Notes: generated by a model not told the origin, from the sequence alone. 64,000 nucleotides of DNA from Phaeobacter sp. QD34_24 (GCF_028890115.1 NZ_JARCJD010000005.1:145880-209879), one strand, 5' to 3'. Shown: positions 3,113-29,448, counted from the first letter of the stretch. Program-made: numbers and translations.

Positions 3113-4030
3113 TCAGTAGATCTTTGGCACGTATAGCTCGTCCGGCAGGAACCGGCGCTCATAGTCGGGATTATACTCCCGATCCGGCAGGGTCACCTTC
3201 TCCTGGGGCACATCCTCATAGGGGACCTTGGTCAAGAGGTGCTCGATACAGTTGAGCCGCTCGCGCTTCTTGTCGTTGCCCTCGACGATATACCAGGGCG
3301 CCTCGGGGATATTGGTGCGTTCCAGCATATCCTCCTTGGCCTTGGTGTACTGTTCCCAGCGGATGCGGCTTTCCAGGTCCATGGGCGACAGTTTCCACTG
3401 TTTCATCGGATCGTGGATGCGCATCATGAATCGCAGCTGCTGCTCTTCGTCGGTGATCGAGAACCAGTATTTCAGCAGGATGATCCCCGACCGCACCAGC
3501 ATACGCTCGAATTCCGGAACGTCCTGGAAGAATTGTTCGACCTGATCGTCGCTGGCAAAGCCCATGACCCGCTCCACCCCGGCGCGGTTGTACCAGGAGC
3601 GGTCAAACAGCACGATTTCACCGGCCGCGGGCAGGTGCGGCACGTAACGCTGGAAATACCACTGGCTTTGTTCACGCCGCGACGGAGCCGGCAGCGCCAC
3701 GACGCGGGCCACCCGCGGGTTCAGGCGCTGAGTGATCCGCTTGATCACGCCCCCCTTGCCGGCACTGTCACGCCCCTCGAACAGGATGCAGACCTTGGCG
3801 CCGCTGTGCTGCACCCAGTCCTGCAGCTTGATCAGCTCTGCCTGCAGGCGCAGCAGGTTGCGGAAATAGACTTTGCGGTCCAGCATCTCGGGGTGTTGCG
3901 ACCGGTAGATCTTGCGCAGCTCCATCGACAGCATGGGCTCGGCAAATTCGATCTCGAAATCCTCGTCCAGCGTGTCCTGAAGCTCGGCATCCAGCCAATC
4001 GAATGAATCAGGGGTGGTATCGCTGGTCAC
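3113..4030 (-). CDS. ppk2: Polyphosphate kinase 2 (polyphosphate:nucleotide phosphotransferase)
   Basis: 305 aa. Walker-A-like GRDSAGKGG plus the PPK2 family blocks (FDRSWYNR..., lid region). Confidence 0.9.
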   Translation of the reverse strand: MTSDTTPDSFDWLDAELQDTLDEDFEIEFAEPMLSMELRKIYRSQHPEMLDRKVYFRNLLRLQAELIKLQDWVQHSGAKVCILFEGRDSAGKGGVIKRITQRLNPRVARVVALPAPSRREQSQWYFQRYVPHLPAAGEIVLFDRSWYNRAGVERVMGFASDDQVEQFFQDVPEFERMLVRSGIILLKYWFSITDEEQQLRFMMRIHDPMKQWKLSPMDLESRIRWEQYTKAKEDMLERTNIPEAPWYIVEGNDKKRERLNCIEHLLTKVPYEDVPQEKVTLPDREYNPDYERRFLPDELYVPKIY

Positions 4031-4249
4031 GGTGGAGCTCCTTCACTCAAAATATCTCTGTTCTGGCCGCTTTAGAGCAGGGATGTGATTGTTTGATGTC
4101 AGATCTGCATCTGTTGCCGGACCGCAGGGATTTTGCCGCCACGCGGTCACGGTCCTCTCTACAAGCGGCAAATCGCCTGACCAGAAGGGAATCGAAAATC
4201 AGGACCGCCTGCAAGGGCAAAACAGCCCTTCGGCGGCCATATGCCTGTC

Positions 4250-5839
4250 TCAGCCGCGCGCCGCTGCCAAAATCATGTCTGATGCCTTTTCCGCGATCAT
4301 GATCGTCGGCGCATTGGTGTTGCCGCTGGTGATCGTCGGCATGACGCTGGCATCCACGACACGCAGGCCAGCGATGCCACGTAGACGCAGCTCGGGATCC
4401 AGAGGCGCGCTCTCCTCCGCCCCCATATGCACCGTGCAGGTGGGGTGGAAGATCGTCGTGCCGATATCCCCCGCCGCACGCACCAGATCCTGTTCATCGT
4501 CGGACACAAGGCCCGGCTTCATCTCTTCCGGCGCGTATCCCTGCATCGGCGCCTGCGCCATGATCGCCCGTGCCTGACGGATCGCGGCTACGGCCACCTG
4601 CCGGTCTCCTTCGGTCGACAGGTAGTTCGGCTGAATGCTCGGCGCCGCCAATGGGTCGGCAGAGGTGATCTCCACCCGCCCCCGACTTTCGGGACGCAGG
4701 TTGCAGACGCTGGCCGTCAGCCCCGGAAAATCATGCAGGGGCTGACCAAAGGCCTCCAGCGTCAGGGGCTGCACGTGGTATTCCAGATCCGGGGTCTCCA
4801 GATCGGGCCGCGAGCGGGAAAAGGCGCCCAGCTGGCTTGGCGCCATGGACATCGGGCCAGACCGTTTCAGCGCATATTCAAGGCCGATCTTCGCCTTGCC
4901 GACCAGGGAATTGGCCAGCGTGTTGAGAGTATGGGCCCCGCTCAGGCGCCAGGCACAGCGCAGTTGCAGGTGATCCTGCAGATTGGCGCCGACCTGCGGC
5001 ATATCCCGCAGCACCTCGATCCCGTGCGCCTGCAACAGCGCGCCGGGACCCAGGCCCGACAGTTGCAGGATCTGCGGGCTGTTGACAGCGCCTGCCGACA
5101 GGATGACCTCACCGCGGGCACGGGCAGTGCGGATCTCTTCCCCTTTTTGATACTCGACCCCGACGGCGCGCCCCTCCTCGATCAGGATGCGGCGGGTATG
5201 CGCCTGAGTTTCGACCTTCAGCCCCTGCCCGGTCGCCGTGCGCAGGAAGGCCTTGGCCGTATTCATCCGCCAGCCAGAGCGTTGATTGACCCGGAAATAG
5301 CCGACGCCCTCGTTATTGCCAGTGTTGAAATCCGTGACCTTGGGCAGCCCCCAGGCAGAGGCCGCCTCCATCCAGTCATCCAGCACGTCCCAGTGCAGAC
5401 GCTGGTTCTCGACGCGCCATTCGCCACCTGCCCCGTGCAGATCAGAGGGGCCTTCGACATAGTCCTCGGACTTCTTGAAATAGGGCAGAACATCGTCCCA
5501 GCCCCAGCCTGCAAGGCCGCGCTGCCGCCAACCGTCATAATCGGCGGCTTGCCCACGCAGGTACAGCATTCCGTTGATCGAGGAACAGCCGCCCAGCACC
5601 TTGCCCCGCGGATAGATCAAGGCGCGCCCATTCAGGCCCGGATCGGCCTCGGTGCGATACATCCAGTCGGTGCGCGGGTTGTTGATGCAGTAGAGATAGC
5701 CCATCGGGATATGGACCCAATGGTAATTGTCACGTCCCCCGGCCTCCAACAGCAGTACGCGCTGCCCGCCCTCGCTGAGCCGCTTGGCCAGGACACAGCC
5801 CGCACTCCCGGCGCCCACGATGATGTAATCAAATTCCAT
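4250..5839 (-). CDS. GMC-family FAD oxidoreductase (choline-dehydrogenase-like)
   Basis: N-terminal MEFDYIIVGAGSAGCVLAKRLSE (ADP-binding beta-alpha-beta fold), the GMC signature blocks and a C-terminal HxxGTxxMG-like region. The track ORF starts 7 codons earlier at a TTG; the ATG at MEFDY is preferred. Confidence 0.85.
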   Translation of the reverse strand: MEFDYIIVGAGSAGCVLAKRLSEGGQRVLLLEAGGRDNYHWVHIPMGYLYCINNPRTDWMYRTEADPGLNGRALIYPRGKVLGGCSSINGMLYLRGQAADYDGWRQRGLAGWGWDDVLPYFKKSEDYVEGPSDLHGAGGEWRVENQRLHWDVLDDWMEAASAWGLPKVTDFNTGNNEGVGYFRVNQRSGWRMNTAKAFLRTATGQGLKVETQAHTRRILIEEGRAVGVEYQKGEEIRTARARGEVILSAGAVNSPQILQLSGLGPGALLQAHGIEVLRDMPQVGANLQDHLQLRCAWRLSGAHTLNTLANSLVGKAKIGLEYALKRSGPMSMAPSQLGAFSRSRPDLETPDLEYHVQPLTLEAFGQPLHDFPGLTASVCNLRPESRGRVEITSADPLAAPSIQPNYLSTEGDRQVAVAAIRQARAIMAQAPMQGYAPEEMKPGLVSDDEQDLVRAAGDIGTTIFHPTCTVHMGAEESAPLDPELRLRGIAGLRVVDASVMPTITSGNTNAPTIMIAEKASDMILAAARG

Positions 5840-5987
5840 GGTCCAGCCCCCGTCGTTCAATATCCCTTCTCTTGAAGCAGATACGACTCGGAATTGTAAG
5901 ACAAATAAAAGTCTGCCGCACCCGACCAGATCACCAAGCCCTCCCGCGCCCGCAGATGCGCCGACTGCGTCGCCACCTCTTGGCGGC

Positions 5988-6076
5988 CTTGGGCGTGGCA
6001 GCGCGCAGCGCGCGCTGCCACGCCCAACGGGAGGTGGTCTTTACAAAAAAAAAGGCCGCCGACGGGCGGGAGTACC
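5988..6076 (+). repeat. REP-like structured intergenic repeat, copy R2
   Basis: Perfect 15-bp hairpin GGCGTGGCAGCGCGC-agc-GCGCGCTGCCACGCC, then CAACGGGAGG, then an A9 tract, then GGCCGCCGACGGGCGGGAGTACC. Lies between the GMC start and the lrp stop. Confidence 0.55.
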
Positions 6077-6099
6077 ACCGGGCAAGCGCGAACAGCGAT

Positions 6100-6558
6100 T
6101 CAGACAGGCAGAGCCGTGGTCTTGAACACCGTGCGCAGGGCAAAGCTGGATTGCATCTGGGCAACGCCGGGCAATCGCGTCAGATGCTGGCGATGAATGC
6201 GCGCGAAGTCATCGGTGTTCTCTGCCACCACCTTCAGAATGTAATCCGCCGTTCCCGCCATCAGGTGACATTCCAGAACATCCGGGATCCGCGCGACGGC
6301 CTTTTCAAAAGCGTCCAGCAGTTCATCCGCCTGCCCCTGCAGGGTGATCTCCACAAAGACCGTGGTCGGCACGCTCAGCTTGCGCGCATCCAGCAGGGCG
6401 ACATAATCCTTGATGTAGCCCTCTGCCTCCAGCCTCTGCACCCGGCGATGGCAGGCGGAGGCCGACAGGTTTACCCTCTCGCTGAGGTCCGCGTTCGAGA
6501 TCCGGCCCTGCCGTTGCAAGACCTGCAGAATACGACGATCCGTCGAATCAAGTGACAT
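6100..6558 (-). CDS. lrp: Lrp/AsnC-family transcriptional regulator (alanine dehydrogenase regulator type)
   Basis: 152 aa from MSLDSTDRRILQVLQRQGRISNADLSERVNLSASACHRRVQRLEAEGYI: an HTH_AsnC domain plus a RAM domain. Divergent to ald. The track ORF extends 29 codons upstream; it was trimmed to the ATG at 6558. Confidence 0.85.
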   Translation of the reverse strand: MSLDSTDRRILQVLQRQGRISNADLSERVNLSASACHRRVQRLEAEGYIKDYVALLDARKLSVPTTVFVEITLQGQADELLDAFEKAVARIPDVLECHLMAGTADYILKVVAENTDDFARIHRQHLTRLPGVAQMQSSFALRTVFKTTALPV

Positions 6559-6692
6559 ATTTGCGAAGCCCTTTGCGTTTGCTGTGCTATTAGTCGAATA
6601 TTCTTCGAACTGCATCTTTTTATTCTGCCCAATAAAGAAGCACATTGTCCCGGTATCGACATAGGCTCTTTCTGCATCAGGGAGGAAACAGC

Positions 6693-7811
6693 ATGAAAAT
6701 CGGATGCCCGACTGAAATCAAACCCCAGGAATTTCGCGTCGGCATGACACCCGATGCCGCCCATGAAGCCATTGCCCACGGTCACGAGGTGCTGATCCAG
6801 ACCGGCGCCGGTGCGGGCGCGGGCTTTAGCGACGCCGATTACGCCGCCGCCGGAGCCCAGCTGGTCGATACGGCCGAAGAGATTTTCGCCACCGCCGAGA
6901 TGATCGTGAAGGTCAAGGAACCCCAGGCGGGTGAGCGCAAGATGCTGCGCGAGGGCCAGCTTCTGTTCACCTACCTGCACCTTGCTCCCGACCCGGAGCA
7001 GACCCGCGATCTTCTGGCTTCGGGCTGCACCGCAATCGCCTATGAAACCGTCACCGACAGCCGCGGCGGCCTGCCGCTCCTGGCCCCCATGTCCGAGGTT
7101 GCGGGCCGTCTTGCGCCGCAGGTCGGCGCCTGGACCCTGCAAAAGGCCAACGGCGGGCGCGGCGTTCTGATGGGCGGCGTTCCCGGTGTTGCTCCCGCCA
7201 AGGTCGTCGTGATCGGTGGCGGCGTGGTTGGCACCCATGCAGCCCGCATTGCGGCAGGCATGGGCGGCGACGTCACGGTTCTGGACCGCTCCCTGCATCG
7301 CCTGAAATACCTGGATGACGTTTTCGGCAGCACCTTCCGCACCCAGTATTCGACAGCCGCCGCCACCGCAGAACTGGTGCGCGAGGCCGATCTGGTGGTC
7401 GGCGCGGTTCTGGTGCCGGGTGCTGCGGCACCCAAGCTGATCTCGCGGGCGCAGCTGAACGAAATGAAACCCGGCGCGGCGCTGGTTGATGTGGCGATCG
7501 ACCAGGGGGGATGTTTTGAAACCTCCAAAGCCACCACCCATGCCGATCCGATCTACGAGGTCGATGGCGTCATGCATTACTGCGTCGCCAATATGCCCGG
7601 CGCCGTCGCCCGCACTTCGACCCAGGCCCTAGGCAATGCCACGCTCCCCTTCCTGCTGGCGCTTGCCGACAAGGGCTGGAAACAGGCCTGCCAGGATGAC
7701 CCGCATCTTCTGGATGGGTTGAACGTCCACGCGGGCCAGTTGACCTACTATGCCGTCGGCAAGGCGCTGGGGATCGATGTCGTCTCTCCCGCTCTGGCGC
7801 TGAGGTCCTGA
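6693..7811 (+). CDS. ald: Alanine dehydrogenase
   Basis: [45 protein letters not shown]... with the NAD-binding motif [19 protein letters not shown] at 6681-6686. Start trimmed from the track ORF. Confidence 0.9.
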
Positions 7812-11403: not shown

Positions 11404-12294
11404 ATGACACGCTCACCCGACAGCTTTGACTGGAACCATATCCGTGCCTTTCTGGCCACCGCAGAAGAGGGCTCGCTCTCGGCCGCGGCCCGCCGTTTGC
11501 GTCTCACGCAGCCGACACTCAGCCGTCAGGTTGCCGCATTGGAGCAGGACCTGGGACTGATGCTGTTTGAACGTATCGGGAAGTCCCTGCAGCTGACCCA
11601 AGCCGGGGTCGAGTTGCTGGAACATACCCGCCCCATGGGGTTTGCAGCTGACAGGATTGCCCTGGCGGCCATCGGCCAGTCGCAATCCATCACGGGCACG
11701 GTGCGGATCACCGCCAGCGATCTCTATTCTGCCCATGTCATGCCGCAGGTGCTGCGCCGTCTCTCAGAAATGGCGCCGGAGCTGACGGTGGAGATCATCG
11801 CCGCCAACGACATTCGCGATCTGATGCGGCGTGAGGCGGATATCGCCATTCGCCATGTCCGCCCCCAGCAACCCGAGCTGATCACCCGACTGCTGCGGGA
11901 AGACACCGCGCATTTCTATGCCGCTCCGCGCTATCTCGATCATGCGGGTGAACCGGCGCACCTCAATGATCTGGGCAACCACGATTTTGTCAGCTTCGGC
12001 AGCGCCCGGGACATGATCGATCATCTCGCCCCGCTGGGGATCACGCTGACCGAGCGCAACTTCCGCTACGGATCGCAAAGCGGCCTGGTGGCCTGGGAGT
12101 TGGTGAAACAGGGGTTCGGGATTGCGCCGATGGCCGACCGGGTCGGGGGAAAGACGCCCGAGGTCACGCGTCTCTTCCCTGAGATGGCACCGATCCGATT
12201 TCCGGTCTGGCTCACCACCCACCGAGAGCTGCACAGCAGCCGCAAGATCCGGCTGGTCTTCGATCTCCTGGCAGAGGTGTTTTCCGCAAAATGA
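11404..12294 (+). CDS. LysR-family transcriptional regulator
   Basis: N-terminal HTH (WNHIRAFLATAEEGSLSAAARRLRLTQPTLSRQVAALEQDLGLMLFER) plus a LysR substrate-binding domain. Confidence 0.85.
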   Translation: MTRSPDSFDWNHIRAFLATAEEGSLSAAARRLRLTQPTLSRQVAALEQDLGLMLFERIGKSLQLTQAGVELLEHTRPMGFAADRIALAAIGQSQSITGTVRITASDLYSAHVMPQVLRRLSEMAPELTVEIIAANDIRDLMRREADIAIRHVRPQQPELITRLLREDTAHFYAAPRYLDHAGEPAHLNDLGNHDFVSFGSARDMIDHLAPLGITLTERNFRYGSQSGLVAWELVKQGFGIAPMADRVGGKTPEVTRLFPEMAPIRFPVWLTTHRELHSSRKIRLVFDLLAEVFSAK

Positions 12295-12347
12295 AACCGC
12301 GCCCCGAAGGGGACGCGGTTGAATTGCATCATAGGGTAGCTTTGGCC

Positions 12348-14744
12348 TCAGCCGCGCAGGCTGCCGCCAGTGGCCTTGGTCACCTTGGCAATGATCTTCT
12401 CGCTCACCGCCTCGATGTCCTTTTCCTTCAGCGTCTTGTCCACGGGCTGCAGGCGCACTGTGATGGCCAGGGATTTCTTGCCCTCGCCCAGGCTGCCACC
12501 GATGAATTCGTCAAAGACGCGCACATCCTCGATCAGGGCCTTGTCGGCACCGGCTGCGGCATTGACCAGGGTCAGCGCCTCGACGCCCTCATCCACCACA
12601 AAGGCAAAGTCACGCTCGACCGCCTGCAGGTCGCTGATCGCCAATGCGGCGCGGGTGGCCCCCGCATTGCGCGGCAGCGGCACCTCGTCGGGCCAGATGG
12701 TGAAGCCCACCGCCGGACCCTTGACGCCCATTTCGCTCAGCACCTTGGGATGCAGCTCGCCAAAGACGCCCAGCACCTTTTTCGGCCCCAGGCAGATCTT
12801 GCCGTGGCGGCCCGGATGCCACCACCCCTGCGCGCCGCGCAGGATCTGAACCTTGGCCGGGGCAGCGATGGCGGCCAGAACCGCCTCGATATCGGCCTTG
12901 GCATCGAATGTGTCCACGGGACGCGAGGCGCCATGCACATCCTTGGCACCGGTGCGTCCGACCAAGAGACCAGAGATCAGGTTGTGCTGCTCCCCCGGCT
13001 CCCCGCCATGAAAGGCCGGGCCGACTTCGAACAGAGCCAGGTCCATATAGCCGCGCGCCTGGTTGCGGGCGGCGGCCTGCAACAATCCCGGCAGCAGGGC
13101 GGGACGCATATGGGACATCTCGGAGGAGATCGGATTGGCCAGCATGGTTGCATCGTCACCGCCACCGAACAGCGTGGCCGAGGCCTTGTCGATGAAGGTG
13201 TAGCTGACGATTTCATTGTAGCCGAGGCTGGCCGCGGTGCGCCGGGCCATCTGTTGGCGGCGCTGCTGCGGGGTCATAACCGGTTTCGGAATGCCCGGCG
13301 TCAGACGCTTGAGCGGCTTGCCTTCCAGTTTCGTCAGCGAGGCGATACGGGCGACCTCTTCCACCAGATCGGCCTCGCCCTGAACATCGGGGCGCCAGCT
13401 GGGCACATGGGCCATGTTGCCCTCAAGCCGGAAGCCAAGGCGGGTCAGGGTCTGGCGCTGATCGCTTTCGGGGATATCCATGCCGACCAGCGACTGCACT
13501 CGGCTTGCGTCCAGCTTGTAGGCGCGCGAATGATCCGGCACGTCGCCTGCGATCACCACTTCAGACGGCTCACCGCCACAGAGGTCGAGGATCATCTGGG
13601 TGGCGCGATGCAGCCCTTCCAGGGTGAATTCCGGATCCACGCCGCGTTCGAACCGATAGCGCGCATCCGAGTTGATCTTGAGCGCGCGGCCGGTGGTCGC
13701 GATCTGCACGTGATCCCAGAAGGCGCTTTCGAGGAAGACATCGACGGTCTCCTCGGTGCAGCCGGTTTCCTCGCCGCCCATGATGCCGGCGATGCTTTCG
13801 GGGCCATTGGCGTCCGAAATCACCATCTGGCCCGCGCCAAGGGTGTATTCCTTCTCATCCAGCGCCAGCAGGGTCTCGCCGCCCTTGGCGCGATGAACCC
13901 GCAGATCGCCCGTCACCTTGGCTGCGTCAAAGACGTGCAGCGGGCGGTTCTGGTCGAAGGTGAAGAAGTTGGTGATATCCACCAGCGCCGAAATCGGGCG
14001 CAAGCCGATGGCGGTCAGCCGATCCTGCAGCCACTGCGGGCTGGGGCCATTCTTGACGCCCTTGATCAGGCGGCCGGTGAACAGCGGGCAGCCGTCCAGC
14101 GTGTCTTCGTCGATGGTGACCTTGATCGGGCTTTCGAAATCGCCGGGGATCGCCTCGTATTCGCGGGTTTTCAGCGTGCCCAGACCACGGGCCGCCAGAT
14201 CGCGGGCAATGCCGTAGACGCCCAGCGCATCGGGGCGGTTCGGGGTGATGGCAATCTCGATCATCGGATCGACCTTGGAGGGGTCGTTTTCCGCCAGCCA
14301 GTCGATCAGCCGGTCGCCCACCTCGCCCGAAGGCAGTTCCACGATGCCGTCGTGATCCTCGCCCAGCTCCAGCTCGCGCCAGGAGGCCATCATGCCGTGG
14401 CTTTCGACGCCGCGGATCTTGCCCACCGACAGGGTGATATCAAGGCCGGGCACATAGTCGCCGGGTTTGCACAGAACCACGGTGATGCCTTCGCGCGCAT
14501 TGGGGGCGCCGCAGACGATCTGCTTTTCGCCCTCGTTGGTCATCACGCGGCAGACACGCAGGCGGTCGGCATCGGGGTGCTGCTCGGCGCCCACGACCTT
14601 GGCCAGGGTAAAGCCTTTCAGCGCATCGGCCGGGTTCACGATCTCTTCGACCTCGAGGCCGAGATCGGTGAGGGTTTCGGCGATCTCCGCGACAGAGGCA
14701 TCGATGTCGAGGTGGTCTTTCAGCCAGGAGAGGGTGAATTTCAT
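12348..14744 (-). CDS. pheT: Phenylalanine--tRNA ligase beta subunit
   Basis: 798 aa: MKFTLSWLKDHLDIDASVAEIAETLTDLGLEVEEI... with tRNA-binding, B3/B4, B5 and FDX-ACB domain order. Confidence 0.95.
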   Translation of the reverse strand: MKFTLSWLKDHLDIDASVAEIAETLTDLGLEVEEIVNPADALKGFTLAKVVGAEQHPDADRLRVCRVMTNEGEKQIVCGAPNAREGITVVLCKPGDYVPGLDITLSVGKIRGVESHGMMASWRELELGEDHDGIVELPSGEVGDRLIDWLAENDPSKVDPMIEIAITPNRPDALGVYGIARDLAARGLGTLKTREYEAIPGDFESPIKVTIDEDTLDGCPLFTGRLIKGVKNGPSPQWLQDRLTAIGLRPISALVDITNFFTFDQNRPLHVFDAAKVTGDLRVHRAKGGETLLALDEKEYTLGAGQMVISDANGPESIAGIMGGEETGCTEETVDVFLESAFWDHVQIATTGRALKINSDARYRFERGVDPEFTLEGLHRATQMILDLCGGEPSEVVIAGDVPDHSRAYKLDASRVQSLVGMDIPESDQRQTLTRLGFRLEGNMAHVPSWRPDVQGEADLVEEVARIASLTKLEGKPLKRLTPGIPKPVMTPQQRRQQMARRTAASLGYNEIVSYTFIDKASATLFGGGDDATMLANPISSEMSHMRPALLPGLLQAAARNQARGYMDLALFEVGPAFHGGEPGEQHNLISGLLVGRTGAKDVHGASRPVDTFDAKADIEAVLAAIAAPAKVQILRGAQGWWHPGRHGKICLGPKKVLGVFGELHPKVLSEMGVKGPAVGFTIWPDEVPLPRNAGATRAALAISDLQAVERDFAFVVDEGVEALTLVNAAAGADKALIEDVRVFDEFIGGSLGEGKKSLAITVRLQPVDKTLKEKDIEAVSEKIIAKVTKATGGSLRG

Positions 14745-22476: not shown

Positions 22477-22554
22477 CGCAGCCCTTGATGGAAGGCCGAG
22501 ATCCCCAACAGCCATGGCCCTGGCAAAGGCTTCACCTCTTCCAGAGCCGGCCGC

Positions 22555-23556
22555 CTACGGTTCCGCGTCCCGGAACACCTGCACAAGCGCATCACCGCGC
22601 CGGGCGGGACCGGGAACGCGCTTGGCAAGGATCAGGCCTGAATAGGGCGTTGTGACCTCCTTGGGGGGCGCCCAAGGCGTATCGGGGCGATGGATGTAAC
22701 CGATCGCTTCTCCCTCCTGGACCGTGTCTCCGATGTCGCGCAGGGGCACATAGATCCCCGCCTCATAGGCATAAACCGACCCCTGCGCATGCAAGGCGCG
22801 GGTGCCCCGCTGCACATCAGGCTCATACCCCGGCAACACCCCAAGACCATGCAGAATCCGCCGCAGCCCGCGTTCCGTCACCTTCAGGATCTCAGGATCC
22901 AGCGCGCCGCCGCCGCCAAGCTCCGCCATGACCGAAACAACCCCCTTGCGGTTGGCCCCGCCCATCGCCGTGCGCGCGGTGGAGTTCGGCCCGCCACCGC
23001 CGGTGAAGACCCAGGCGTAGGGCAGGTCGAAGGCCGCCTCTAGCCGCTTTAGCAGCGCGGCCTCTTCCTGGGTCCAGCCCTGTCCCCGCAGCAGCGTCGG
23101 CGGGTAATAAAGCGATGATCCGCCGGAATGCAGGTCCACCATCACATCGCAGAGCGGCAGCAACTCCTCTTCGATGTAGTGGGCAATCACCTGACTGGGC
23201 GTGCCACTGGGGTCGCCCGGAAACAACCGGTTGAGGTTACCGTCATCGATTGGGGAAGTGCGCAGGCCCGCCTCTGCCGCCGGTGCATTGGCCATGGGCA
23301 GGAAGATCACCCGGCCACGAATCTCCTCCGCCGCCAGGCTGCGCGCCAGGTTCGAGATGGCGATCTGACCCTCATATTCGTCGCCATGGACACCGCCCAT
23401 CAATAGAACGGTTGGCCCCTCCCCGTTACAAAGGCACACCACGGGAACCGGGATCCAGCCATAGGCACTGCGATGCACCGAATGAGGCACCCGTAAAAAG
23501 CCCTGCTGCCGCCCCTCGGCCCCGAAATCCACCTCCGATGTGACGGGGGAGACCAT
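22555..23556 (-). CDS. Succinylglutamate desuccinylase/aspartoacylase-family zinc deacylase
   Basis: 333 aa; zinc-binding block LLMGGVHGDEYEGQ and the AstE/AspA family C-terminal domain. May act as the N-acyl-L-glutamate deacylase of the adjacent cluster. Confidence 0.7.
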   Translation of the reverse strand: MVSPVTSEVDFGAEGRQQGFLRVPHSVHRSAYGWIPVPVVCLCNGEGPTVLLMGGVHGDEYEGQIAISNLARSLAAEEIRGRVIFLPMANAPAAEAGLRTSPIDDGNLNRLFPGDPSGTPSQVIAHYIEEELLPLCDVMVDLHSGGSSLYYPPTLLRGQGWTQEEAALLKRLEAAFDLPYAWVFTGGGGPNSTARTAMGGANRKGVVSVMAELGGGGALDPEILKVTERGLRRILHGLGVLPGYEPDVQRGTRALHAQGSVYAYEAGIYVPLRDIGDTVQEGEAIGYIHRPDTPWAPPKEVTTPYSGLILAKRVPGPARRGDALVQVFRDAEP

Positions 23557-23561
23557 GCCTA

Positions 23562-24422
23562 TCAGATTGCGGCCTTCACGGATTCTTCCAGGTAGATCTC
23601 GCGCAGGCGTTTTGCGATCGGGCCGGGCGTGCCATCGCCCAAGGCAACGCCGTCGATCTCGACAACCGGCATCACAAAAGCAGAGGCAGAAGTGGTGAAG
23701 GCTTCGTCCGCCTCTTTCGCCTCGTCGATGGTGAACAGACGCTCTTCGATCTTCAGCTGTGCCTCTGCCGCCATGCGCAGAACCGCCTTGCGGGTGATGC
23801 CGTGCAGGATGTCATTGGACAGCGGGCGGGTCACGATCACGCCATCCTTGACGAAATAGGCGTTGTTCGAGGTGCCCTCGGTCACATAGCCGTCTTCCAC
23901 CATCCAGGCGTCATCGGCACCGGCCTTCTTGGCCATCATCTTGCCCATCGACGGGTACAGCAGCTGTACCGTCTTGATGTCGCGGCGGCCCCAGCGAATG
24001 TCCTCGATCGAGATGATCTTGGCGCCCTTCTTGGCGGCGGGGCTGTCGGCCAGACCGGGTTTGTTCTGGGTGAACAGCACGATGGTCGGCTTGGTATCCG
24101 CGCTCGGGAAGACGAAATCACGGTCGCCATCGGAACCACGGGTCACCTGCAGGTACACAAGCCCTTCGTCGATACCGTTCAGTTCCACCAGCTTGCGGTG
24201 GATTTCCAGGAGTTCTTCCTTGCTGCAGGGCTCAGCCATGTCGAGTTCGTCCAGCGAGCGTTTCAGACGCACGGCATGGCCTTCGAAATCGATGAGCTTG
24301 CCGCCCAGGACCGAGGTCACCTCATAGACCGCGTCCGCCATAAGGAACCCGCGATCAAAGATAGAAACGGTGGCTTCGGTTTCCGGCAGATAGCTGCCAT
24401 TCACATAAACGGTGCGGGTCAT
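23562..24422 (-). CDS. dat: D-amino-acid aminotransferase (class IV aminotransferase)
   Basis: 286 aa; PLP fold type IV (FDRGFLMADAVYEVTSV..., LVYLQVTRG, ITRKAVL). Confidence 0.8.
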   Translation of the reverse strand: MTRTVYVNGSYLPETEATVSIFDRGFLMADAVYEVTSVLGGKLIDFEGHAVRLKRSLDELDMAEPCSKEELLEIHRKLVELNGIDEGLVYLQVTRGSDGDRDFVFPSADTKPTIVLFTQNKPGLADSPAAKKGAKIISIEDIRWGRRDIKTVQLLYPSMGKMMAKKAGADDAWMVEDGYVTEGTSNNAYFVKDGVIVTRPLSNDILHGITRKAVLRMAAEAQLKIEERLFTIDEAKEADEAFTTSASAFVMPVVEIDGVALGDGTPGPIAKRLREIYLEESVKAAI

Positions 24423-24530
24423 AGTGTGTCTCCTGCTCTGGACGCGACGATATGGGTTGACGGATCAAGACCGCGTCGCGATCACTGTCGCAACTGGCCT
24501 AGCGAGAATTTTCAAAAAGGGGAAGCCACA

Positions 24531-24977
24531 ATGCCCGCAACGCAATCCGCAATGATCATGTTGGTTGCGGGGATCGGAATTCCCGTGCTGGCTGCCTTGA
24601 ATGCCGCCCTGGGTCAGCGCATGGGCTCGCCCGTGGCGGCAGGTGTGATTTTATTCCTCGTGGCCCTCCTCACGACGGGCATCGTGTTCCTGATGGCGGG
24701 CGGCTCCCTGAAAGCAGCGGTCGGCGCCCCACCCCATCTGTTCCTTGCGGGCTGCCTCGTGGCCTTTTACGTGCTGACCATCACCTGGGTCGCCCCAACC
24801 TTTGGCGTTGGCAATGCGGTCTTCTTCGTGCTGATCGGCCAGTTGATCTCGGCTGCCATCATCGACCATTTCGGCCTGTTCGGTGCCGCGCAGCACCCGC
24901 TGACATTGGCCCGCGCCGCTGGCATCGCCGTGATGGGCGCGGGTGTCTTCCTGACCCAGATCGCAGGCCGCGCCTGA
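24531..24977 (+). CDS. DMT-superfamily small transporter (YdcZ/DUF606-like)
   Basis: 148 aa; four TM helices (MPATQSAMIMLVAGIGIPVLAALNAALGQRMGSPVAAGVILFL...). This is only the C-terminal part of the track ORF 23802..24977; the rest of that ORF is antisense to dat. Confidence 0.6.
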   Translation: MPATQSAMIMLVAGIGIPVLAALNAALGQRMGSPVAAGVILFLVALLTTGIVFLMAGGSLKAAVGAPPHLFLAGCLVAFYVLTITWVAPTFGVGNAVFFVLIGQLISAAIIDHFGLFGAAQHPLTLARAAGIAVMGAGVFLTQIAGRA

Positions 24978-24996
24978 GCGCTGCCCCAACCAGGCC

Positions 24997-25962
24997 TCAG
25001 CCCCAAAGCGCCGCGCTTGGCGGATGCACACCGGCAGCGTCATATTCCATTGTTACCTCGCGATCTTCGGACAGAAGCAGCGGCCCATCCAGATCGGTGA
25101 CCATCGCCCCCTGCGCCAAGAGCGCCGCAGGCGCCATCGCCAGCGACGAGCCCATCATGCAGCCGACCATCACCTTGTAGCCTTCGGCCAGCGCCGCCTC
25201 GCGCAATTTCAGCGCCTCGGTCAACCCGCCGGTTTTGTCCAGCTTGATGTTGACCACATCGTATTTGCCCTTGAGTTTCGGCAGGCTGGCACGGTCATGG
25301 CAGCTTTCATCGGCACAGACGGGCACCGGGCGTTCCATGCCGATCAGCGCGTCGTCCTCACCGGCAGGCAGGGGCTGCTCCACCAGCGACACGCCCAGGC
25401 GCACCAGGTGCGGCGCAAGCTCTGCGTAAACCTCGGCGCTCCAGCCCTCGTTGGCGTCGATGATGATCTTGGCATCCGGGGCGCCTGCGCGCACGGCCTC
25501 AAGGCGGGGCATGTCATCGGCGGTGCCCAGCTTGATCTTCAACAGCGGGCGATGAGCGTTCTCAGCAGCCTGCTCCCGCATCACCTCGGGCGTGTCCAGC
25601 GACAGGGTATAGGCGGTGATCTCCGGTCCCGGCTCCGGCAGGCCCGCCAGTTCCCAGACCCGTTTGCCCGCCTGTTTCGCCTCCAGATCCCACATCGCGC
25701 AATCCACCGCATTGCGAGCCGCCCCTGCGGGCAGCAGGGATTGCAGCTCTTGCCGGGTGAAATGCGCAGGCAGGCCGGTGATCTGGGCGGTCACGCTCTC
25801 GTTCGTTTCATCATAGCGCGCATAGGGCACGCATTCGCCCCATCCGGTCACCCCGTCCTGTTCAATCCGAACGGTCAGCACCTTTGCCTCGGTCCGCGAG
25901 CCGCGGGAGATGGTAAAGGCCCGTGCCAGTTTGAATTGATCCGGCGTCACGGTGACTTTCAT
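24997..25962 (-). CDS. dgcA: Enolase-superfamily dipeptide epimerase / N-acyl amino acid racemase (DgcA-like N-acetyl-D-glutamate racemase)
   Basis: 321 aa. MR/MLE family with a catalytic K-x-K (LLKIKLG), Asp ligands (IIDANEGW; VEQPL) and a C-terminal KLDKTGG. Adjacent to the DUF1611 gene, as in the described D-glutamate pathway. Confidence 0.7.
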   Translation of the reverse strand: MKVTVTPDQFKLARAFTISRGSRTEAKVLTVRIEQDGVTGWGECVPYARYDETNESVTAQITGLPAHFTRQELQSLLPAGAARNAVDCAMWDLEAKQAGKRVWELAGLPEPGPEITAYTLSLDTPEVMREQAAENAHRPLLKIKLGTADDMPRLEAVRAGAPDAKIIIDANEGWSAEVYAELAPHLVRLGVSLVEQPLPAGEDDALIGMERPVPVCADESCHDRASLPKLKGKYDVVNIKLDKTGGLTEALKLREAALAEGYKVMVGCMMGSSLAMAPAALLAQGAMVTDLDGPLLLSEDREVTMEYDAAGVHPPSAALWG

Positions 25963-26009
25963 GGGTGATCCTTTCGAGGAATGGATTGGGACTTTGGTTG
26001 AATGGACGT

Positions 26010-26036
26010 AAAAAGGGCGCCTGTTGCCAGACGCCC
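26010..26036 (-). terminator. Candidate terminator downstream of dgcN (minus strand)
   Basis: GGGCG-(cctgttgccaga)-CGCCC preceded on the + strand by an A5 tract, which is a T-run on the minus strand. Confidence 0.45.
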
Positions 26037-26046
26037 CCCTTAGAAA

Positions 26047-27048
26047 TCAGATTGCGGCGAGCGCGTCCACCAGGCGGCCCGCGCCGTGACGGTAGGGGTC
26101 CACGGCAGGCAGACCCATGCGGTCTTCCACTTCTTTCAGATAGGCCACGGCCTCTTCTTCGCCCAGGTGCTGGGTGTTCACCGAAATGCCGACAACCTGG
26201 CACTCCGGGTTGGCCTTGCGCGCCAGCGGCAGCGCGGTGTCACGCAGCTCTTCCAGGGTCGGCAGGCTGTAGCCCGGCAGGCCGCGCATGTGTTCGCGGG
26301 TGGGTTCGTGGCACAGGATCAGCGCATCGGGCTGACCGCCATGCACCAGCGCCATGGTGACACCGGAATAGGAGATGTGGAACAGCGATCCCTGGCCCTC
26401 GATCAGGTCCCAGTGATCTGCGTCGTTGTCCGGGGTCAGGTACTCGATGGAGCCCGCCATGAAATCGGCAATCACCGCATCCAGCGGCACGCCATGGCCG
26501 GTGATCAGGATGCCGGTCTGGCCGGTGGCGCGGAAGGTGGATTTCATGCCGCGCTTCTGCATCTCGGCATCCATCGCCAGCGCGGTGTACATCTTACCGA
26601 CCGAACAATCGGTACCAACGGCCAGGCAACGCTTGCCGGTCCGCTTGACGCCATTGGCGATCGGGTATCCGACGGTGGGCACCCGGACGTCATGCAGGGT
26701 GCCGCCATGGGTCTGGGCCGCAGCAACCAGATCGCCTTCGTCGCGCAACAGGTTGTGCAGGCCAGAGGCAATGTCATAGCCCATCTCAAGCGCCTTGATC
26801 AGCACTTCCTTCCACGCGGGAGAGATGATGCCGCCCCGGTTGGCAACCCCGATCACCAGGGTTTTGGCGCCGGCCGCCTTGGCCTCTTCCAGGGTCATCT
26901 CGGTCAGGCCCAGATCCGCACCGCAGCCCGGCAGGGAGATCTGGCCGACCGCATGATCCGGGCGCCAGTCGCGGATGCCGATGGCAACCTTGGCCGCAAG
27001 CATGTCAGGCGCATCGCCCAGGAACAGCAGATAGGGTGTCTCGATCAT
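26047..27048 (-). CDS. dgcN: DUF1611-family protein (DgcN-like D-glutamate N-acetyltransferase)
   Basis: 333 aa from MIETPYLLFLGDAPDMLAAKVAIGIRDWRPDHAVGQISL...; CoA-binding-like N-domain plus the DUF1611 C-domain. GGAGG RBS. The 69-codon N-terminal extension in the track ORF was trimmed. Confidence 0.7.
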   Translation of the reverse strand: MIETPYLLFLGDAPDMLAAKVAIGIRDWRPDHAVGQISLPGCGADLGLTEMTLEEAKAAGAKTLVIGVANRGGIISPAWKEVLIKALEMGYDIASGLHNLLRDEGDLVAAAQTHGGTLHDVRVPTVGYPIANGVKRTGKRCLAVGTDCSVGKMYTALAMDAEMQKRGMKSTFRATGQTGILITGHGVPLDAVIADFMAGSIEYLTPDNDADHWDLIEGQGSLFHISYSGVTMALVHGGQPDALILCHEPTREHMRGLPGYSLPTLEELRDTALPLARKANPECQVVGISVNTQHLGEEEAVAYLKEVEDRMGLPAVDPYRHGAGRLVDALAAI

Positions 27049-27353
27049 CTCGGGGCCTCCGTGGTTCAGTGATTCATCGCGAATGTTAAGTGCGCCACCC
27101 CGCGAAACGGTCCCGATTTTGCATTTGCACAGCCCCCCTATTCGAAGATTCTTCGACCATATCGATATCTGATCGAAGATTTCCCCGCAGAAGCCCTGTC
27201 GCTTGCGGGGATCTACGTCCAAACAGAAGAAACCCATGCAATCGCAGCAACTCAATGCTGCAATTGCAAACTACGCCTTGCAAGCAGAGACGCAATTTCA
27301 TACCACAATGGCAGTCAAATTCGTAATTTCCTTACCCAGCAAGGAGAGCCACC

Positions 27354-28393: not shown

Positions 28394-28999
28394 TTGGCCG
28401 ATCTCACCCTGTTTCACACCGCCAAGGCGCATGTGGAGACCTTCGACCGCCTCGCCCCGGATGCGGATCTAACCCATGTGGTGCGCCCCGACTGGCTGGA
28501 ACGCGCCCAGGGCGGCATAGATGCAGCGCTGCGCCAAGACATCACCCAGGCCATTCAGGCCGTTCAGGGTCCGGTTTTGTGCAGTTGCACCACCATCGGT
28601 GATGTGGCTGAAAAGGCAGGCGCCACCCGCATTGACTGGCCAATGATGCAAAAGGCCGCCGAAATCGGCGGGCCGGTGATGCTGGCCTATTGTCTCGATA
28701 GCACCCGCGCGCCCTCCACCGCTCTGTTGGAACGTGCCTTTCGGGAGCGGGGCAAGAGCGCAGAGATACGCGCCCTGCCGCTGACCGGCCTGTGGCATCA
28801 CTTCACGGATGGCAACAACGATGCGTTTCACAGGCAGATCGCCACTTGGGTGAACACCTCCCTCACCCTGGTCGCAGACACCTCCTGCGTGGTGCTGGCG
28901 CAGGCCTCGATGGCGGGGGCCGCCCCATTGATCGACAGCACCGTACCGGTGCTGACCTCGCCCGACACCGCGGTCCGCGCGCTATTGAAGGACGCCTAG
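28394..28999 (+). CDS. Asp/Glu/hydantoin racemase-superfamily-like protein (tentative)
   Basis: ~201 aa from a TTG start (GGAGG RBS 6 nt upstream): MADLTLFHTAKAHVETFDRLAPDADLTHVVRPDWLER... with VLCSCTTIG and VVLAQASMAG blocks reminiscent of the two half-site motifs of this superfamily. Family assignment is uncertain. Confidence 0.4.
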   Translation: MADLTLFHTAKAHVETFDRLAPDADLTHVVRPDWLERAQGGIDAALRQDITQAIQAVQGPVLCSCTTIGDVAEKAGATRIDWPMMQKAAEIGGPVMLAYCLDSTRAPSTALLERAFRERGKSAEIRALPLTGLWHHFTDGNNDAFHRQIATWVNTSLTLVADTSCVVLAQASMAGAAPLIDSTVPVLTSPDTAVRALLKDA

Positions 29000-29448
29000 G
29001 CGCGCATGTCCTTGGGCGAGCCCATTACGACATAGGTGGTGATCGCCGTCACATAGGGGGAGGTGCCCAGAATATCCGTGTGAAACCGCTTGTAGCTGGG
29101 CAGATCGGCGCATTCGACGCGCAGAAGATACTCGATGGTACCGGTGATATTGTGGCACTCCACCACCTCGGGCGCGGCCTGCATGGCGCGTTCGAAGGCC
29201 TCCTGCGCCTCCTTGGTGTGCTCGCCGAGGCCCACGCCGATATAAGTGACAAACCCCACCCCCATCGCCTCGCGGTCCAGAACAGCCTTGTAGCCGGTGA
29301 TGACGCCTGTTCGCTCCAGCTCCTGCACCCGGCGCAGACAGGCCGAAGGCGACAGGCCCACACGTTCGGCCAATTCAAGATTGCTGATCCGCCCATCGCG
29401 GGACAGCTCTTGCAATATCTGCTGATTTATTCGGTCCGTTTTCGCCAT
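28996..29448 (-). CDS. Lrp/AsnC-family transcriptional regulator
   Basis: 150 aa from MAKTDRINQQILQELSRDGRISNLELAERVGLSPSACLRRVQELERTGVITGY... Divergent from the LysE transporter gene. Confidence 0.85.
   Translation of the reverse strand: MAKTDRINQQILQELSRDGRISNLELAERVGLSPSACLRRVQELERTGVITGYKAVLDREAMGVGFVTYIGVGLGEHTKEAQEAFERAMQAAPEVVECHNITGTIEYLLRVECADLPSYKRFHTDILGTSPYVTAITTYVVMGSPKDMRA

Follow-up and report, generated by a model that had tools for sequence, protein, structure and literature searches.

The putative D-glutamate locus dgcN-dgcA-dat of Phaeobacter sp. QD34_24 and two single genes inserted at its junctions

Introduction

A D-glutamate catabolic pathway built on the enzymes DgcN and DgcA is attributed to Pseudoalteromonas sp. 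CF6-2 (Yu et al. 2023, ISME J 17:537, as cited in passages of PMC12363236 and PMC10845958), and a passage of PMC11747546 gives the EC numbers 2.3.1.312 for DgcN and 5.1.1.25 for DgcA. In this study we compare with that pathway a locus of Phaeobacter sp. QD34_24, which lies at positions 22555-27048 of a 64,000-nucleotide stretch of DNA (hereafter the window; G+C about 62%). A first-pass annotation had described five genes here, encoding DgcN, DgcA, a class IV D-amino-acid transaminase (Dat), a small membrane protein of the DMT type and a zinc hydrolase of the AstE/AspA family (AstE-like), and had read them as one complete route from the import of D-glutamate to L-glutamate. It is suggested here, with good though not full confidence, that the locus represents the known DgcN-DgcA pathway in its roseobacter form, together with its conserved partner Dat, and that the two remaining genes are unrelated single-gene insertions.

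The CF6-2 cluster (NZ_CP091443.1, the record of the model strain, found by tblastn of PLSDB) and the window are alike in that a DUF1611 acetyltransferase gene and an enolase-superfamily racemase gene are adjacent and co-oriented, the products being 46% and 48% identical between the two. They differ in their surroundings. In CF6-2 the dgcN-dgcA pair is preceded by genes for a TonB-dependent receptor, an amidohydrolase, an M14 carboxypeptidase, an NhaC-type transporter and the LysR regulator dgcR, and there is no Dat, whereas in the window dgcN is not accompanied by a LysR regulator gene, Dat lies downstream, and a different, Lrp-type-looking palindrome stands upstream. The megaplasmid of Ruegeria sp. 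TM1040 (NC_008043.1) shares the gene order of the window, from a divergent gene for an Mcl-like lyase through dgcN, dgcA and dat to genes for a LigB-type dioxygenase and a DUF1244 protein, and its DgcN is 88% identical. In comparison with TM1040 the window has an extra YdcZ-type DMT gene between dgcA and dat and an extra AstE-like gene between dat and the LigB-type gene.

The closest characterised relative of the AstE-like protein is DoeB/EutE of ectoine catabolism, an N-alpha-acetyl-L-2,4-diaminobutyrate deacetylase (6TWM/6TWL, TIGR02994). The two proteins belong to the same AstE/AspA fold family, align over their full length and share the motif regions, but on the DoeB model, its best NCBIfam match, the window protein reaches 230.7 bits where the cut-off is 402.7, its gene has no ectoine genes near it, and its orthologues pair with PatB.

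Results

Identity of DgcN, DgcA and Dat

The five genes proposed for 22555-27048 were confirmed as open reading frames (ORFs) at the same coordinates, and Pfam returned for each of them the domain that had been claimed. DgcN scores 550.9 bits on the NCBIfam equivalog model NF041892 (cut-off 480), and since residues 5-330 of the 333-aa ORF match profile positions 1-326 of 326, the ATG at 27048 is the right start of dgcN. Its alignment with DgcN of CF6-2 extends over 330 aa without gaps (E 1e-114). With the protein of known structure in PDB 7XRJ, whose source is closely related to Ruegeria sp. TM1040 without being that strain, 293 of 333 residues are identical (88%).

DgcA likewise passes its own NCBIfam equivalog, NF042940, with 511.8 bits against a cut-off of 400, and aligns with DgcA of CF6-2 over the full length, including the KxK, D/E/D and second-Lys motif regions. 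The first-pass annotation had called this protein an N-acyl amino acid racemase, a placing that the structural comparisons contradict: E. coli YcjG (1jpd) is matched with 283 bits, and NAAAR/OSBS structures with about 48. By these matches DgcA is in the L-Ala-D/L-Glu-epimerase branch of the enolase superfamily, outside the classical N-acylamino-acid racemase subgroup. The YcjG dipeptide epimerase itself was also considered as an identity for DgcA and was rejected, because the L-Ala-D/L-Glu epimerase model for YcjG gives it 321.9 bits and has a cut-off of 343.

For Dat, the description as a class IV D-amino-acid aminotransferase is upheld by 380.9 bits on the NCBIfam D-amino-acid transaminase model NF005209 (cut-off 320) and by the PDB, where the best matches are D-Ala/D-amino-acid aminotransferases (9pxs, 203 bits; 1daa, 170 bits), with BCATs at about 135 bits. 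The counterparts of the three proteins in Ruegeria sp. TM1040 are labelled DgcN, DgcA and D-amino-acid transaminase in RefSeq. Homology to the characterised DgcN and DgcA is strong, as the equivalog scores, the identities to CF6-2 and the match to 7XRJ indicate, and the earlier naming of the DUF1611 protein and the racemase as a DgcN/DgcA pair is sound. Judged by its sequences, the DgcN/DgcA/Dat core is a known system that is annotated automatically. DgcN and DgcA have been given EC numbers and curated NCBIfam models, and a structure from a close relative is available.

Gene order in related genomes

Gene order was compared in the 80 closest dgcN loci of Rhodobacterales, which were obtained by a profile scan with a 7-sequence DgcN alignment, taking one genome per GTDB species; DgcN in this set is 75-97% identical to that of the window. 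The counts of gene order rest on tblastn with the window proteins, and genes in the related loci are our own calls, made with an imperfect filter based on GC3. More distant contexts of dgc genes were drawn solely from PLSDB plasmid records (tblastn).

In Rhodobacterales, dgcA directly follows dgcN in 75 of 76 informative loci, and dat is found after dgcA in the same orientation in 74 of 75, with a truncated contig as the one exception; the gap between dgcA and dat is under 120 bp in 55 loci. A divergent HpcH/malyl-CoA-lyase-like gene is found upstream of dgcN in 57 of the 80. The two other genes of the window are rare. After dat, an AstE-like gene is present in one of 70 informative loci, that of Phaeobacter sp. 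SH40 (L007), and the DMT gene occurs in one of 80, that of Aliiroseovarius subalbicans (L028). Neither is present in Phycobacter sedimenti (L006), the closest relative, where DgcN reaches 97% identity. What is conserved is the trio dgcN-dgcA-dat alone, and the arrangement of all five genes is not kept in relatives.

Outside Rhodobacterales, a Vibrio tritonius plasmid has dgcN-dgcA-dat adjoining alr and a gene for a Na+:alanine symporter, and in plasmids of Pantoea and Klebsiella the genes after dgcN-dgcA encode a peptide ABC transporter. No AstE/AspA-family gene is present in the dgc clusters of CF6-2, Vibrio, Pantoea or Klebsiella in these plasmid records.

The enterobacterial carriers are a Pantoea ananatis plasmid (L172) and a Klebsiella pneumoniae IncFIB plasmid (L173), with DgcN 52-53% identical to that of the window. 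In both, genes for a peptide or glutathione-type ABC transporter follow dgcN-dgcA in place of Dat. Clinical K. pneumoniae plasmids are among the carriers and have dgcN-dgcA beside the pco copper-resistance genes.

One further locus, from an uncultured Roseovarius (L017), contains a second pair of DUF1611 and MR/MLE genes at 5211-7269, on the opposite strand and a few kb from its canonical dgcN-dgcA. The products are 36% and 34% identical to DgcN and DgcA of the window, and the pair may be a paralogue of dgcN-dgcA that acylates and racemises another substrate.

Layout of the locus

The five genes adjoin one another, as the term compact locus had implied (Table 1). Four of them, however, are on the minus strand and the DMT gene is on the plus strand. 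It converges on dgcA, at a distance of 19 nt, and diverges from dat, at 108 nt. For this reason the locus is made up of three transcription units, dgcN-dgcA, the ydcZ-like gene and dat-astE-like, rather than a single operon. In the first unit the gap between dgcN and dgcA, on the same strand, is 84 nt. In the last, the ATG of the AstE-like gene comes 5 nt past the stop of dat, because of which these two genes are probably co-transcribed in the window. A scan of the locus for promoters and terminators gave nothing usable.

Table 1. Genes and putative regulatory element of the locus, with positions in the window
Feature and predicted product	Position	Strand	Domains, models and remarks
dgcN, D-glutamate N-acetyltransferase (EC 2.3.1.312)	26047..27048	-	DUF1611_N + DUF1611; NCBIfam NF041892
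dgcA, N-acetyl-D-glutamate racemase (EC 5.1.1.25), enolase superfamily, Ala-Glu-epimerase branch	24997..25962	-	MR_MLE_N + MR_MLE_C; NCBIfam NF042940
DMT_YdcZ-family small membrane protein	24531..24977	+	Pfam PF04657, E 1.9e-32
dat, class IV D-amino-acid transaminase	23562..24422	-	Aminotran_4; NCBIfam NF005209
AstE/AspA-family DoeB-like zinc hydrolase, putative N-acyl-amino-acid deacylase	22555..23556	-	AstE_AspA_cat, Pfam PF24827, E 1e-35
Palindrome TCGAAGA-N-TCTTCGA, putative operator	27142..27156		about 94 bp upstream of the dgcN start

Insertions at the junctions and the DMT gene

In DNA alignments, window positions 24435-24994, which hold the DMT gene, are without counterpart in TM1040, L006, L007 and two further roseobacter contigs (L166 and L167), and in all five dat directly follows dgcA. 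Positions 22478-23560, which hold the AstE-like gene, are absent from TM1040. In that genome dat comes 10 nt after dgcA and is followed by the gene for the LigB-type dioxygenase. Against TM1040 and other related genomes, the DMT and AstE-like genes are clean, lineage-specific single-gene insertions. The corresponding junctions in other genomes, between dgcA and dat and after dat, are occupied by assorted genes, among which no deacylase recurs; judged by eye from sequence they include isochorismatase-like, NUDIX-like, ILVD_EDD-like (dihydroxy-acid dehydratase) and GST-like genes and genes for membrane proteins. Both junctions are insertion-prone.

The DMT protein matches PF04657 with 112.9 bits, residues 8-141 corresponding to profile positions 4-140 of 140, and has no match in NCBIfam. 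The Pfam description of the YdcZ family is that of a putative exporter. The suggestion that this protein is the import component of the locus finds no support here: as a D-glutamate importer it was rejected because it lies on the wrong strand for an operon, belongs to a family annotated as exporters and accompanies dgc genes in one of 80 loci.

In that one locus, L028, the DMT gene (12044-12490) has the same site and orientation as in the window, with similar spacing, and its product is 82% identical in amino acids. Aliiroseovarius subalbicans is a distant species, yet it is the sole sharer of the DMT gene among the 80 species. The shared site would be explained either by two insertions or by transfer through recombination in the flanking genes.

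Family and origin of the AstE-like deacylase

The AstE-like protein, which is 100% identical to a protein of Phaeobacter sp. QD34_3, has its PDB matches in 3cdx (235 bits) and DoeB 6twm (196 bits). The regions HGDEYEGQ (57-64), DLHSGG (141-146) and ELGG (212-215) align with 3cdx and are invariant across orthologues; from knowledge of the family, we take these regions to contain the zinc ligands (H-x-x-E ... H) and the catalytic Glu. An identity as a true DoeB was rejected on the score below the TIGR02994 cut-off and the lack of ectoine genes nearby, and the protein is regarded as a paralogue. None of the ectoine genes doeA/eutD, doeC and doeD was found in the window locus or beside the orthologues inspected.

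Homologues of this protein number thousands, and a tier with 63-70% identity is common in Rhodobacterales and Rhizobiales. In Hoeflea (L004) the AstE-like gene is followed by a gene for an aminotransferase-fold protein. In Aquicoccus sp. G2-2 (L005) it is the first gene of an operon, ahead of genes for a PALP enzyme, a MIP channel, an aminotransferase-fold protein and an FMN reductase, and a divergent ArsR-type regulator gene lies upstream. By NCBIfam the aminotransferase-fold protein is a C-S lyase of the PatB family (411 and 399 bits; cut-off 340) and the FMN reductase is ArsH (398 bits; cut-off 292). A scan of metagenomes gave 29 loci with AstE-like orthologues at least 59% identical. PatB is downstream of the AstE-like gene in 16 of these, and in three more the operon begins but is cut off by the end of the contig; an ArsR gene is nearby in 18, divergently upstream in all but L113. 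None of the 29 contains dgcN, dgcA or dat. The deacylases of the ArsR/AstE-like-PALP-MIP-PatB-ArsH operon in Aquicoccus sp. G2-2 and the metagenome contigs are 63-70% identical to that of the window and keep the invariant residues, but none of the partner genes of that operon adjoins the AstE-like gene in the window, where the nearest ArsR-like and ArsH-like matches are weak (29-33% identity) and 18-38 kb away.

The dat-adjacent homologues closest to the window protein are those of L166 (80% identical), L167 (71%) and L007 (68%). Gene order is dgcA-dat-AstE-GNAT-GFA in L166, dgcN-dgcA-dat-ORF-AstE-PatB in L167 and dat-AstE-PatB in L007. In a neighbour-joining tree, calculated without support values, these three copies and that of the window form one clade nested among PatB-paired sequences, and PatB has been kept in two of the four members. 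The simplest history would be that an AstE-PatB cassette was inserted once after dat and that the lineage of the window later lost PatB. At positions that are nearly invariant among orthologues the window protein differs conservatively (I5V, A200G, V219L, M240V, F269Y, S303T, V318A), and comparison with the orthologues found no non-conservative change at family-invariant positions. As all these differences are conservative, they give no hint of a changed substrate.

A palindrome upstream of dgcN

The 7-1-7 palindrome upstream of dgcN would be expected 0.11 times per window at up to two mismatches. With up to three mismatches, it is enriched ahead of dgcN, where 22 of 79 Rhodobacterales loci have it as against 24 of 4505 control stretches. 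The window holds just one other copy, at 6594-6608, which has a single mismatch and lies between the gene for an Lrp/AsnC regulator (6100-6558, minus strand) and that for alanine dehydrogenase (6693-7811, plus strand; 518.6 on TIGR00518, cut-off 391.85). A second Lrp/AsnC gene is at 28996-29448. The palindrome was not found in the intergenic region between the DMT gene and dat. It may be an operator shared by dgcN and alanine dehydrogenase, and its occurrence at both promoters offers a regulatory link that can be tested.

The intergenic region between dgcN and the HpcH gene also holds a separate block of repeats at its HpcH-proximal end. Window positions 27254-27353 contain the conserved TTGC/GCAA repeats TTGCG..GCAAG..TTTGCA.TTGCAGCA, which are common to ten Rhodobacterales, and the block includes a 13-bp inverted repeat at 27237-27268 from the terminator scan. 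The block is probably part of the promoter of the malyl-CoA-lyase-like gene.

Discussion

D-glutamate and the other D-amino acids of peptidoglycan make up a sizeable pool of marine organic nitrogen, of which roseobacters are major consumers. D-amino-acid transaminase (EC 2.6.1.21) converts a D-amino acid and 2-oxoglutarate into a 2-oxo acid and D-glutamate, and this known reaction, with the linkage of the genes, suggests that Dat feeds D-glutamate into the DgcNA pathway. On this model, Dat would use D-alanine or other D-amino acids with 2-oxoglutarate to give a keto acid and D-glutamate, and free D-glutamate could also enter directly. DgcN would then acetylate D-glutamate with acetyl-CoA, and DgcA would convert the resulting N-acetyl-D-glutamate to N-acetyl-L-glutamate; for both of these steps we rely on orthology to the characterised enzymes. 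Enzymes encoded elsewhere would deacetylate the product or use it as an intermediate of the arginine pathway. N-acetyl-L-glutamate is the first intermediate of that pathway, so that the locus need not encode a deacetylase of its own. The net effect of the trio would be to turn D-amino acids into keto acids and L-glutamate at the cost of one acetyl-CoA.

Although its core adds nothing new to the known pathway, the locus is informative about the company that dgcNA keeps. In Rhodobacterales and at least one Vibrio, dgcNA is almost always joined to a D-amino-acid transaminase gene. From this near-constant linkage it can be argued that the main job of the pathway there is the disposal of D-glutamate made by transamination of other D-amino acids. 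For the same reason, Dat is better read as a feeder of D-glutamate than as the parallel transamination route proposed earlier. An alanine-responsive, Lrp-type regulator common to ald and dgcNA would fit such a role for Dat. The DMT and DoeB-like deacylase genes would be accessory genes that landed in an insertion-prone spot, and the deacylase would have come from an AstE-PatB cassette, most likely keeping the N-acyl-amino-acid substrate of that cassette.

Several observations weigh against this reading of the deacylase and lend some substance to the original proposal, in which the AstE/AspA-family enzyme is an N-acetyl-L-glutamate deacetylase and the five genes, with the DMT protein, form a self-contained route from D-glutamate to L-glutamate. 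The protein is a DoeB-like zinc deacylase with its catalytic motif regions aligned, its predicted chemistry fits N-acetyl-L-glutamate, and the substrates hydrolysed by characterised family members are N-acetyl or N-succinyl L-amino acids. Its gene is 5 nt from dat. The same position after dat is filled in three other roseobacter contigs, making four genomes in all (the window, L007, L166 and L167), and identity of the AstE-like proteins there (68-80%) is below that of the flanking genes (84-94%), which could reflect repeated acquisition at the site and would then hint at selection. It might be envisaged that a small Phaeobacter-related clade recruited a deacylase derived from the AstE-PatB cassette as its N-acetyl-L-glutamate deacetylase, translationally coupled to dat, in a self-contained route that was perhaps controlled by the palindrome through an operator shared with alanine dehydrogenase. 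We nevertheless regard this as unlikely. The deacylase gene is missing from 69 of the 70 informative Rhodobacterales dgc loci and from the clusters of CF6-2, Vibrio, Pantoea and Klebsiella, and its orthologues are linked to PatB, ArsR, MIP and ArsH without dgc genes. The dat-adjacent copies are a single clade in which PatB is still present in two of four, the window copy has no sign of active-site remodelling, and the DMT gene is on the other strand, in a family described as exporters and in one of 80 loci. The comparison of genomes does not support a complete import-to-L-glutamate route within one locus, as the deacylase and DMT genes are each so rarely present and the deacylase orthologues normally reside in PatB operons.

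A peptidoglycan-dipeptide module was also weighed, in which DgcA would act as a YcjG-like L-Ala-D/L-Glu epimerase and the AstE-like protein as an MpaA-like murein-peptide amidase. Such a module could account for the 321.9 bits of DgcA on the YcjG model and its 283 bits to 1jpd, and for the RefSeq name of the CF6-2 protein, 'L-Ala-D/L-Glu epimerase DgcA'. Enterobacterial dgcNA clusters adjoin peptide ABC transporters, the CF6-2 cluster includes an M14 carboxypeptidase, and the AstE-like protein has a weak match to MpaA (E 2.8e-4). That match, however, reaches 20 bits against a cut-off of 157, and DgcA remains below the YcjG cut-off while passing the DgcA model by more than 100 bits. Its DUF1611 partner passes the DgcN equivalog, and both DgcN and DgcA have EC numbers of their own in the passage of PMC11747546 cited above. 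The module is accordingly given very little credence, and the known DgcN-DgcA pathway with Dat and two unrelated insertions is preferred.

The usual home of the AstE-like family is the PatB/ArsR/MIP/ArsH operon, and a label of N-acetylglutamate deacetylase should not spread through it without an assay. That operon recurs in L005 (7558-12523) and in metagenome contigs (L086, L089-L093, L096, L097, L103 and L114), with AstE-like orthologues 63-70% identical to the window protein. Its parts are a divergent ArsR gene, the AstE-like gene, a PALP gene whose product resembles threo-3-hydroxyaspartate ammonia-lyase, a MIP channel gene, PatB and often ArsH. The operon is apparently uncharacterised, and since it carries an arsenic-type regulator, a channel and ArsH, its content suggests that it metabolises or detoxifies an N-acyl amino acid containing a metalloid or sulfur. 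A different setting is seen in L166, where the AstE-like gene (3461-4530, 80% identity) is followed by a GNAT acetyltransferase gene and a GFA-family gene, with no PatB. The presence of an acetyltransferase beside the deacylase suggests a cycle of acetylation and deacetylation on some amino-acid derivative.

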